Source: Vicinamibacterales bacterium (GTDB lineage: Bacteria > Acidobacteriota > Vicinamibacteria > Vicinamibacterales > UBA8438). Taken from it: a stretch of 64,000 nt of DNA. The first letter of the stretch is position 1; the number at the start of each line of letters is the position of its first letter. The notes under the pieces are model-generated. The model searched no databases and was not told where the DNA came from. It saw nothing but the letters and a program-made list of their open reading frames with translations. Below are positions 2,066 through 3,772 of this stretch, piece after piece. The stretch spans positions 3,034,494 through 3,098,493 of the forward strand of contig OZ251506.1 of NCBI GenBank assembly GCA_965242835.1, in the 5' to 3' direction. The position numbers and the translations under genes were made by a program.

Positions 2066-3772
2066 CTACCTCTCGTGCCTCGACTGCATGAACTCGATGC
2101 CTTCCGCCAGCACGTTGCGCCAGGCGCGCTCGACGTCCCGGTCGAAGTGCCCGTCGAACTCCCGGACGGTTTGCAGCAGCGACTCCAGCCACAGGTCGTA
2201 GAGCTCGAATCCTACGTCGAGGCCGTGCCGGCCGTGGCGGCGCGCGACGCGGTCGAGCTCCTCCAGCTCGTCCGCCGGCGCGCCCGAGACGCTGGTCATC
2301 AGCGCGAGCGAATCGGCGAGCATCTTCTTCTGGCGGGCGAAGTCGGTGTGCCTGAACTTCTCGCGCACCTGCTCGCTCGAGGCCAGGAACAGCTCGTAGA
2401 AGCGGTCGAGGAAACCGTGCTTCGTCAGGCAGCGGGCCAGGCTGTCGTCGAAGACCTCGGCGTGCGCCGAGCCCTCCTTCATCTCCGTGATCGACACCGC
2501 CGGGAAGTTCTTGACGAACAGCAGGAACAGCAGGAAGAAGAGCGAGAAGCTGCCGACGGTGATCGCGCCCTCCACCCAGGTCGGTTCGTAGAGGCCGGTC
2601 CAGTTGGCCGGGTCGAAGTCGTGCGACAGCGACGTGACGATGATGACGAAGCGCTCCAGCCACATCCCGACGTTGATCAGGATCGAGATGGCGAACAGCG
2701 CGGCCAGGTTCGTGCGGACGCGCTTGAAGAAGAGCGCCAGCGGGACGACGACGTTGCAGCCGAGCATGCCCCAGGTGAAGAGGCGGTACTCGCCGAACAT
2801 CCGGTTGTGGAACGTGCCCTGCTCGAACGGGTTGCCGCTGTACCAGGCCACGAAGAACTCGGTCAGGTAGGCGTAGCCGACGATGAGCGACGTGACGATG
2901 ATCAGCTTCGCCAGGTTCTCGAAGTGCCGGATGGTGACGTACTCCTCGATGCCCAGCAGCTTGCGGAGGGGGATCAGCAGCGTGATCACCATCGCCAGGC
3001 CCGAGAAGATGGCCCCGGCGACGAAGTAGGGCGCGAAGATCGTGCTGTGCCAGCCCGGCAGGATGGACATCGCGAAGTCCCACGAGACGACGCTGTGGAC
3101 CGAGACGACGAGCGGGGTGGCCAGGGCCGCGAAGAAGCCGTACAACGCGCCGTAGTGGATCCACTGCCGCGTCGAGCCGCGCCAGCCGAGGGCCAGGGCG
3201 CGGTAGATCGGCCTGCGCCAGTCGGCGCAGCGGTCGCGGGCGGCGGCGACGTCCGGGATGAGGCCCAGGAACAGGAACATCGCGCTCACCGTCAGGTAGG
3301 TCGTGATCGCGAAGACGTCCCAGACCAGCGGCGACTGGAAGTTCACCCACAGCTGGCGCTCGTTCGGGTAGGGGATCAGCCAGTAGAAGAACCAGGGGCG
3401 GCCGATGTGGATGATCGGGAACAGCCCGGCGGTCATGACCGCGAACACCGTCATCGCCTCCGACGCCCGCGCGACCGCGGTGCGCCATTTGGCCCGGAAC
3501 AGGAACAGGACCGCCGAGATGAGGGTGCCGGAGTGGGCGATGCCGACCCAGAAGACGAAGTTGGTGATGTAGATGCCCCAGAGCATCGGGTGCTCGTAGC
3601 CCGCCACGCCGAGCCCGAGCCGCCACTGCACCGAGAACGCCCAGGCGCCGAGGGCGAGGCCGCCGAGGATCAGCGCGAGCGCGGCCCAGTACGCCCGGCC
3701 CGGCGGCTGCATCGTCCGCAGGACGTCGGCGTCGATCCGGCCCCAGGCCGCCGCGTGGTCCGCCGCGCTCAC
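2066..3772 (-). CDS. actC: Alternative complex III quinol-interacting subunit ActC (NrfD/PsrC-like) with an extra C-terminal globin-like domain
   Basis: 568-aa ORF. Residues 1 to about 430 are polytopic NrfD-like (WGIYITNFVFWVGIAHSGTLISA, MWLERFVIIVTSLSHDF). Residues about 438-568 are soluble and globin-like (see finding). No stop separates the two parts. Confidence 0.85.
   Translation of the reverse strand: MSAADHAAAWGRIDADVLRTMQPPGRAYWAALALILGGLALGAWAFSVQWRLGLGVAGYEHPMLWGIYITNFVFWVGIAHSGTLISAVLFLFRAKWRTAVARASEAMTVFAVMTAGLFPIIHIGRPWFFYWLIPYPNERQLWVNFQSPLVWDVFAITTYLTVSAMFLFLGLIPDVAAARDRCADWRRPIYRALALGWRGSTRQWIHYGALYGFFAALATPLVVSVHSVVSWDFAMSILPGWHSTIFAPYFVAGAIFSGLAMVITLLIPLRKLLGIEEYVTIRHFENLAKLIIVTSLIVGYAYLTEFFVAWYSGNPFEQGTFHNRMFGEYRLFTWGMLGCNVVVPLALFFKRVRTNLAALFAISILINVGMWLERFVIIVTSLSHDFDPANWTGLYEPTWVEGAITVGSFSLFFLLFLLFVKNFPAVSITEMKEGSAHAEVFDDSLARCLTKHGFLDRFYELFLASSEQVREKFRHTDFARQKKMLADSLALMTSVSGAPADELEELDRVARRHGRHGLDVGFELYDLWLESLLQTVREFDGHFDRDVERAWRNVLAEGIEFMQSRHER

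Follow-up and report, generated by a model that had tools for sequence, protein, structure and literature searches.

A predicted flavohaemoglobin-related globin domain fused in frame to the ActC subunit of alternative complex III in Vicinamibacterales

Introduction

Why the quinol-oxidising subunit of a respiratory complex should continue into a globin is the question raised by a gene of a Vicinamibacterales bacterium (Acidobacteriota; GenBank assembly GCA_965242835.1). The gene lies in a stretch of 64,000 nucleotides (nt) of contig OZ251506.1 (positions 3,034,494 to 3,098,493 of the forward strand), hereafter the window, and all positions are counted from its first letter. It encodes ActC, a subunit of alternative complex III (ACIII), followed in the same reading frame by a globin-like tail. 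An earlier note, made from the letters of the window alone, had pointed out this extension and suggested that a globin attached to ACIII could couple oxygen or nitric oxide (NO) sensing or chemistry to electron transfer. To our knowledge, a built-in haem globin is not known from any respiratory quinol:cytochrome c oxidoreductase. The fusion joins two long-standing questions, namely the role of globins resembling PA3967 of Pseudomonas aeruginosa, and the way in which ACIII activity is matched to O2 and NO.

The analysis reported here found the fusion to be genuine and to be transcribed with its operon, and it is conserved in a Vicinamibacterales clade of sponge-associated and marine members. 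The fold, haem pocket and lineage of the tail were then considered together with its position in the complex, its evolutionary history and the functions that it might serve.

Authenticity and conservation of the fusion gene

In the open reading frame (ORF) of 568 amino acids (aa), a check of codon positions showed that the last transmembrane helix and the C-terminal extension are not separated by a stop; the extension is present exactly as quoted in the earlier note. The coordinates given there for it (2066-2461) take in residues 438-568 and the stop codon; the domain boundary was here set slightly earlier, at G434 (nt 2473), because homology to ActC stops at E433. Close ActC proteins that lack the extension are 431-454 aa long and end 0-20 residues past the conserved ...SITEMKE motif, in agreement with the premise that NrfD-type subunits usually end after their last transmembrane helix. 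At third codon positions the G+C content (GC3) reaches 0.995 over the ActC part and 0.956 over the globin, so both parts carry the extreme codon bias of the host. The coordinates of the gene, its parts and its neighbours are collected in Table 1.

A genome scan recovered the stretch formed by the tenth transmembrane helix (TM10) and the globin, uninterrupted and at 88-94% identity, in 18 species-representative genomes, all labelled Vicinamibacterales or Acidobacteria and several of them closed chromosomes of 5-8 Mb. Twenty fused loci were compared (the window, L002 and L003-L020); the frame is open in 20/20, and all ORFs encode 568-589 aa. Five further clusters of fused proteins in the protein database (P0001-P0005) are at 79-94% identity and comprise about 245 member sequences in all. 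According to run metadata, the exact sequence occurs mostly in sponge metagenomes; the contig index holds no record of the exact window protein. DNA contigs from runs X1, X2 and X3, which belong to two studies, cover positions 1900-2700 with 0 gaps, and no indel or stop was found near 2460-2480, where the earlier note had envisaged a possible break between the two parts. The single indel seen, of 4 nt in X8, lies behind position 2064 and hence past the stop codon.

Metatranscriptome contigs from relatives of about 90% identity run from the membrane region of ActC through the globin into actD (contig 14 of X28 extends over 2072-3772 and actD, and the junction is also crossed by contig 9 of X24 and contig 1 of X23), with the caveat that metatranscriptomes can contain DNA. 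Among the 20 fused sequences, the median pairwise ratio of non-synonymous to synonymous substitution rates (dN/dS) is 0.088 for ActC and 0.136 for the globin, and the globin domain is under purifying selection.

The apparent fusion could also be an artefact, if a sequencing or assembly error or a frameshift had joined actC to a separate globin gene, or if the globin were translated from the internal Met431. Frameshifted or chimeric entries do exist in the databases (P0009, P0335, P0333), and a 138-aa gene call beginning at Met431 (P0331) is on record, on a 1.6-kb contig. Against an artefact stand the same frame in 20 loci, closed chromosomes included, the zero gaps across the junction in independent contigs, and the lack of a stop in any frame-preserving position. 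The internal start was rejected as a candidate: no spaced Shine-Dalgarno sequence precedes Met431, the ATG being directly abutted by ACGGAG, and the residue is part of TEMKE, an ActC motif that unfused ActC proteins have as well. An artefact of any of these kinds is, in our estimation, extremely improbable.

As for the faulty entries themselves, P0009 is frameshifted, its tail diverging after about residue 418, P0335 is frameshifted within the globin, and P0333 is a chimera in which the C-terminus of ActB is joined to ActC. All three are likely assembly errors or pseudogenes, and such entries could mislead automated domain counts.

Fold, haem pocket and lineage of the globin domain

When used as a query, the 137-residue tail matched the structure of P. 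aeruginosa PA3967 (1TU9) with E = 1.5e-22 over tail residues 12-133. An AlphaFold2 model of the tail, built with 36 family sequences, has seven helices, a predicted local distance difference test (pLDDT) score of 90.5 and a predicted template modelling (pTM) score of 0.85. In a Foldseek search of the PDB, this model superposed on 1TU9 with template modelling (TM) scores of 0.90/0.94, a root-mean-square deviation of 1.0 Å and 37% identity, followed in rank by Hell's Gate globin I (HGbI), neuroglobin, thermoglobin, myoglobin and flavohaemoglobins; almost all of the 50 matches listed are globin structures. Free-standing metagenomic homologues are 40-55% identical to the tail. The gathering score of Pfam Globin (PF00042), which about half of the free-standing family members reach, is missed by the tail (19.3 bits) and by the whole protein (15.3 bits, cut-off 22); it is thus the 1TU9 match and the fold, and not Pfam, that place the domain in the globin superfamily. 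Both the globin fold and the conserved proximal histidine that the earlier note had expected of profile or structure searches were found, and its recognition of the tail as a globin is upheld by the 1TU9 match and the model.

The lineage of the domain was addressed with several profiles. The tail scored E = 0.0016 against Pfam Globin and E = 0.12 against Protoglobin, and the NCBIfam model of the flavohaemoprotein N-terminus matched it with E = 1e-4. A profile of the family, searched against PDB sequences, returned 1TU9 (1e-43), then the two Methylacidiphilum-type globins 3wfw and HGbI, thermoglobin and the flavohaemoglobins 1cqx, 3ozu and 1gvh, with truncated globins at E > 0.1; no globin-coupled sensor was among the 60 PDB sequence matches listed. 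1TU9 has itself been listed among the flavohaemoglobin-like single-domain globins (Vinogradov et al., 2006, PMC1457004); a placement of it among the sensor-type single-domain globins was rejected on the strength of this source and of the profile results. Judged by profile matches and predicted fold, the tail is a 3-on-3 globin of PA3967 (1TU9) type, of the flavohaemoglobin-related (F) lineage. The likeness to Vitreoscilla haemoglobin (VHb) and Escherichia coli Hmp proposed in the earlier note thus stands as far as the lineage is concerned, but the nearest relatives are PA3967-type globins, whereas VHb (1vhb, E = 0.12) and Hmp (1gvh, E = 6e-4) themselves are only distant matches of the family profile.

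Two familiar classes can be set aside. The protein is not a flavohaemoglobin proper, because it has no FAD/NAD(P)H reductase module: it ends 4 residues after the globin H helix, and Pfam and NCBIfam returned no reductase domains. Nor is it a globin-coupled sensor of the sensor (S) lineage, because its globin belongs to the F lineage and stands at the C-terminus, and the partner is an enzyme subunit and not a known transmitter domain.

Profile alignment gave the same haem-pocket assignments as those made by eye in the earlier note, with Tyr at B10 (Y459), Phe at CD1 (F473), Gln at E7 (Q481) and His at F8 (H513). The FY, Q, H and Y columns of the family coincide with B9/B10, E7, F8 and the G-helix Tyr of HGbI, the 3wfw globin domain and thermoglobin; the B10 column takes in the position mutated in the thermoglobin Y29F entry, and the His513 column matches the proximal His in all PDB globin alignments shown. 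Tyr459 is present in 20/20 fused sequences and in at least 90% of the 36-sequence family alignment, and Phe473 and His513 are invariant in both sets. Position 481 is Gln in 19 of the 20 fused sequences and His, the other canonical distal residue, in L002, while L485 (E11), Y525, W528 and W551 are also invariant in all 20. The predicted haem pocket appears intact, and from sequence and model we infer a haem-b-binding single-domain globin.

A haem-free, purely structural role for the globin is difficult to reconcile with these data. Such a role would agree with the dispensability of the domain in sister lineages, described below, and with a Pfam Globin score under the gathering threshold. However, all 20 fused sequences keep the proximal His, CD1 Phe, B10 Tyr and E11 Leu, E7 is only Gln or His, dN/dS is 0.136, and the same haem-pocket residues are kept in the free-standing family; a haem-free domain is accordingly rated as very improbable.

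ActC module, topology and junction

End-to-end alignments of residues 13-437 were obtained with the ActC chain of every solved ACIII structure, four in all (6f0k_C, E = 2.3e-135 over residues 22-433; 6btm_C, E = 5e-130; also 6lod_C and 8k9e_C; range 1e-125 to 1e-135), and the fusion protein matches Pfam NrfD with E = 5e-26. Ten hydrophobic segments in the ActC part are in line with ten transmembrane helices. H80, T83, S86, R97, R102, E105, T108 and D152 are invariant in 43 ActC sequences (alignment A3); the equivalence to half-channel residues is our own reading of the alignment, with a +17 offset onto the Rhodothermus marinus residues of PMC5928083. The surrounding genes form a canonical actABCDEF operon, the order of which is kept in relatives, and this arrangement, together with the 6f0k_C match, confirms that the N-terminal part is ActC of ACIII, as the earlier note had proposed. 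By its sequence, the ActC subunit encoded here looks complete and functional.

ActC has been described with ten transmembrane helices and both termini in the cytoplasm (PMC5928083). The alternation of loops rich in lysine and arginine over the ten segments likewise predicts an N-in/C-in arrangement, and the topology prediction suggested in the earlier note thus places the domain on the cytoplasmic side. E430 of the ...SITEMKEG motif aligns with R. marinus Glu450, a residue listed in the cytoplasmic proton half-channel (Sousa et al., PMC5928083), and the globin begins four residues after E430. In the tail model the first globin helix spans residues 2-19 (tail numbering), starting where ActC homology ends, at E433. 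The A helix thus starts within about 5 residues of E433, so the linker is at most about 5 residues long. The sequence that spans the junction (…SITEMKEGSAHAEVFDDSLAR) is tightly constrained: over residues 421-441 the 20 sequences show no indel and a mean major-allele frequency of 0.988, compared with 0.928 in the globin body and 0.963 in ActC overall.

The globin is predicted to lie on the cytoplasmic face, beside the mouth of the ActC proton half-channel. Because the ACIII cofactors are all periplasmic (PMC5928083) and the globin is placed in the cytoplasm, direct electron transfer from those cofactors to the globin is unlikely; a periplasmic globin receiving electrons in this way had been entertained and was ruled out by the topology. 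A full-length AlphaFold2 model (alignment A3) was rejected as docking evidence, its mean pLDDT being 66 and that of the globin about 40, with six alignment rows covering the globin.

Loss of the domain in sister lineages

The nearest globin-less ActC proteins are as similar to the window protein as distant fused ones (82-84% versus 79-80%), and in a neighbour-joining tree of the ActC core, which is indicative only, fused and unfused forms interleave. Several unfused proteins end in what is a decayed start of the extension, namely ...KESSQHAELFDSNLAR in P0006, P0007 and P0329, and ...KEGSQQAELLDRSP in P0326, P0327, P0332 and P0336; in two related unfused lineages, 11-14 codons are left of what was once the N-terminus of the globin. 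One marine metagenome contains both a fused operon (L002) and an operon with such a remnant (L001). Their nucleotides are collinear, with most bases matching, up to a Cys codon that reads TGC in L002 and TGA in L001. From there L001 (7290-7360) lacks about 375 nt relative to L002 (9320-9700), and the alignment resumes in actD. It follows from the remnants and from this collinearity that the fusion predates these lineages and that at least one deletion has since removed it.

The unfused operons L033 and L034 show no remnant, and in none of L001, L033 and L034 does a globin gene of its own stand between actC and actD, as would be expected before the fusion. Sister lineages without the domain keep an otherwise identical operon, and in them the domain is dispensable, an accessory to the complex.

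The globin family in other architectures

An exhaustive profile search returned 3,050 representative clusters at E <= 1e-3, almost all of them free-standing globins of 130-150 aa. No NrfD-globin fusion was found among the best 150 of the 3,050 representatives, a result which neither supports nor limits the distribution of the fusion, because fused proteins may hide under unfused 50%-identity representatives. The gene contexts of the nearest free-standing homologues (P0125, P0127) are not respiratory and offered no clue to function or donor. A mixed alignment of ActC and free-standing globins (A4) was discarded, MAFFT having scattered the globins over ActC at 15-23% identity.

PA3967-like globins were found in several other fusions. 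They follow REC or Hpt at the C-terminus of hybrid histidine kinases (P0273, P0256), are joined to a PilZ protein (P0255) and to pairs of CBS domains (P0282, P0286, P0301), and in P0302 the globin lies inside the protein, flanked by an acyltransferase and an AMP-binding enzyme. Such architectures seem to be little described. The kinase, PilZ and CBS fusions represent modular use of the globin and are ambiguous as to its role, since it often occupies the position of a regulated output domain. Giant poly-globins were also encountered, with 14 tandem globin stretches in P0208 (2,461 aa) and 6 in P0197 (1,208 aa).

Possible functions of the tethered globin

The function that we favour, tentatively, is that of a tethered O2/NO-reactive haem module which would protect or feed ACIII-linked respiration. 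One copy per complex would be held at the inner membrane surface of the ACIII assembly, near the membrane, where O2 and NO concentrate. The module would bind O2 through its Tyr-B10/Gln-E7 pocket and would either consume NO, in a reaction of the NO-dioxygenase type with re-reduction by some cytoplasmic reductase, or buffer O2, and the segment from ACIII to cytochrome c oxidase could thereby be kept running when O2 fluctuates and NO appears, as they do in sponge tissue. Electrons would not be expected from ACIII itself, since its cofactors are all on the other side of the membrane. The fusion would make permanent the association with membrane and oxidase that has been reported for VHb.

The lineage and the Tyr-B10/Gln-E7 pocket are as in NO-dioxygenating and O2-handling bacterial globins, and VHb is reported to accumulate beneath the membrane and to bind cytochrome bo at subunit I (PMC3962134). 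That the domain was lost repeatedly would suit an accessory of conditional use. The C-terminal placement of related globins after REC, Hpt, PilZ and CBS modules, which is that of a regulated effector, may be counted on the same side, albeit as ambiguous evidence. Sponge tissue swings between oxic and anoxic states and has active nitrogen cycling, and life as a sponge symbiont would be a plausible selective reason for the fusion.

Several points weigh against a tethered O2/NO-reactive module. No reductase is fused to the protein or encoded in the operon, and the Glu (H23) of the proximal His-Tyr-Glu triad of flavohaemoglobins is presumably not conserved, a lead taken from alignment A2 set against VHb numbering. 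No oxidase genes are adjacent to the operon, and fusion to an oxidase subunit would be more direct if the oxidase were the target; an ACIII-oxidase supercomplex would be a supposition for this organism. One globin per complex is a small catalytic capacity, and the PA3967 family, PA3967 itself included, is biochemically uncharacterised. Finally, a short, near-invariant linker at a proton-channel residue fits regulatory coupling at least as well.

Regulatory coupling would make the globin an allosteric gas or redox sensor, which we regard as possible but doubtful. Ligand binding or the redox state of the haem would shift the conformation of the globin and so gate ACIII, the signal passing through the short rigid junction to the post-TM10 segment, with E430 at the entrance of the half-channel, and to the neighbouring cytoplasmic domain of ActD. 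Proton uptake, and hence quinol oxidation, would be throttled, and ACIII would become a respiratory complex gated by O2, NO, carbon monoxide or redox state. This is the main rival to the O2/NO-reactive module, its chief support being a tight junction at a proton-channel residue that mere tethering leaves unexplained. It draws on the junction being better conserved than either the globin body or ActC and free of indels, on the closeness of the A helix to E433, and on the pairing of E430 with Glu450 of the R. marinus proton half-channel, while a 1:1 stoichiometry suits an allosteric domain. PA3967-like globins are, moreover, joined elsewhere to signalling modules (hybrid histidine kinases, PilZ, CBS pairs), and a chimeric globin of the same lineage is fused to a Roadblock/LC7 regulatory domain (3wfw).

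The established bacterial globin sensors, however, are of the S lineage and carry the globin at the N-terminus (PMC8076648), whereas here it is of the F lineage and C-terminal. In the kinase, PilZ and CBS fusions the globin stands at the position of an output domain, and those fusions are no proof of sensing. The clean deletion in sister lineages, with no other change in the operon, indicates that ACIII works without the globin, and the poor full-length model gives no docking support.

Chemistry at the membrane offers a further alternative to the O2/NO-reactive module, and an improbable one: the tethered globin could bind or detoxify lipid hydroperoxides, quinone radicals or superoxide arising from the quinol site of ACIII. 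Flavohaemoglobin and VHb are reported to bind phospholipids in the distal pocket (reference 39 of PMC3962134); the present domain is of a flavohaemoglobin-related lineage and would be forced against the membrane surface. The interaction of VHb with membrane lipids, cited in PMC3962134, also counts for this idea. Yet the quinol site of ActC lies close to the periplasmic surface (PMC5928083) and the globin on the other side of the membrane, no specific sequence evidence of lipid binding was found, and analogy alone carries the idea.

Relation to known systems

The free-standing, 130-150-aa globins of the PA3967 (1TU9) family share with the fused domain the same invariants (S, R, FY, F, SS, F, Q, H, Y, W, D, W) and a two-residue-longer F-G spacing. 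They are soluble and independent proteins, whereas the domain described here has no start of its own and is attached to a membrane respiratory subunit. The solved ActC proteins of R. marinus (6F0K), Flavobacterium johnsoniae (6BTM) and Roseiflexus (6LOD) and that of 8K9E have in common with the window protein the ten transmembrane helices, the half-channel positions and the actABCDEF gene order, but their chains reach only about 16-35 residues past the aligned region and carry no globin; the globin is also absent from about 115 other ActC proteins listed. VHb and the globin domain of Hmp/FHP are alike in their 3-on-3 fold, their Tyr-B10/Gln-E7/Phe-CD1/His-F8/Tyr-G pocket and their lineage. VHb, however, associates non-covalently with membrane and oxidase and is distant in sequence, and Hmp carries its own FAD/NAD reductase, of which there is none here.

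The nearest architectural analogue is GsGCS of Geobacter sulfurreducens, in which a bacterial globin is likewise covalently linked to an integral membrane domain, of the PsiE-like type with four transmembrane helices, and for which a role in redox sensing or in membrane-bound electron and proton transfer has been proposed (PMC8076648). It has an N-terminal globin of the S lineage and a membrane domain of unassigned function, in contrast to the C-terminal F-lineage globin on a defined respiratory subunit described here; by fold, its globin (2w31) ranks 28th, with TM scores of 0.68/0.62. The F lineage has been recruited as a module in the globin-Roadblock/LC7 protein (3WFW) and in the globin domain of syNOS (9Q15), but the partners are a regulatory Roadblock domain and an NO synthase, neither of them a membrane or respiratory subunit.

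No description of an ActC-globin fusion was found in the literature on ACIII, NrfD proteins, chimeric and transmembrane globins and sponge Acidobacteria, a coverage that is incomplete and leaves room for an earlier mention; within that scope, the fusion is seemingly undescribed, as the earlier note had supposed. In the databases, the fused proteins are named "hydrogenase" or "polysulfide reductase NrfD" by NCBI, and one fragment is named "hemoglobin-like flavoprotein" by JGI. The parts are known and their combination is apparently new. Fused and deletion-derived unfused operons in close relatives, even within one metagenome, provide natural matched controls. Were the allosteric sensor to prove true, an electron-transport enzyme would be under direct post-translational control by gases, exerted from within one of its own subunits.

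Operon features and genomic surroundings

Table 1. Positions in the window of the fusion gene, its domains and key residues, and the other genes of the ACIII operon.
Feature	Position	Strand	Description
actC-globin fusion gene	2066..3772	minus	568 codons plus TAG stop (2066-2068); GTG start (3770-3772)
ActC module, residues 1-433	2474..3772	minus	NrfD/PsrC fold; quinol-oxidising and proton-channel subunit of ACIII
Junction, residues 421-441	2450..2512	minus	KNFPAVSITEMKEGSAHAEVF; post-TM10 segment running into the globin pre-A/A helix
E430 codon	2483-2485	minus	pairs with Glu450 of R. marinus ActC
Globin domain, residues 434-568	2069..2473	minus	predicted 3-on-3 fold, PA3967/1TU9-like
Tyr459 (B10)	2396..2398	minus	distal pocket; from alignments
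Phe473 (CD1)	2354..2356	minus	from alignments
Gln481 (E7)	2330..2332	minus	distal residue; from alignments
His513 (F8)	2234..2236	minus	predicted proximal haem ligand; from alignments
actA	7123..7785	minus	multihaem cytochrome c; Pfam Cytochrome_C7, Cytochrom_CIII
actB	3828..7097	minus	molybdopterin-like domain and Fe-S domain; Pfam Molybdop_Fe4S4, Molybdopterin, Molydop_binding, Fer4 families
actD	1484..1993	minus	Pfam ActD, E = 2e-41; likely true start ATG 1982-1984
actE	859..1491	minus	monohaem cytochrome c; Pfam Cytochrome_CBB3, Cytochrom_C
actF, N-terminal 287 codons	1..862	minus	6f0k_F, E = 4e-24, and 6lod_F; gene exceeds the window start

Two details of the operon concern gene starts. 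In the window, the actB stop lies 55 nt before the GTG of actC (3773-3827), and in the relatives L032 and L034 actB and actC overlap by 4 nt; the true actC start in the window and in relatives may differ. The start region of actD is doubled on the minus strand, the two copies (aacggtgaacgccATGcgaatcc at 2064-2042 and aacggtgagggccATGcgcatcc at 1997-1975) lying about 65 nt apart, and the first copy begins a 20-codon ORF (MRILHARGAPAQAAAAPGER, then a stop). The doubling is absent from the other 20 fused loci examined, whose spacers vary from about 4 to 85 nt, and is probably a private local duplication.

An apparent defence or mobile island adjoins the ACIII operon on its upstream side, at positions 8300-29100 of the window, with three genes on the minus strand. 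These encode a 617-aa N6-adenine methylase of the Eco57I type (8939-10792), an ORF which failed the core-gene GC3 filter, an AAA_21/AAA_15 ATPase (15653-17044), and a 1,774-aa protein with DEAD-helicase, Helicase_C and MZB (ex-DUF1998) domains (23710-29034) that is reminiscent of DISARM-like systems.

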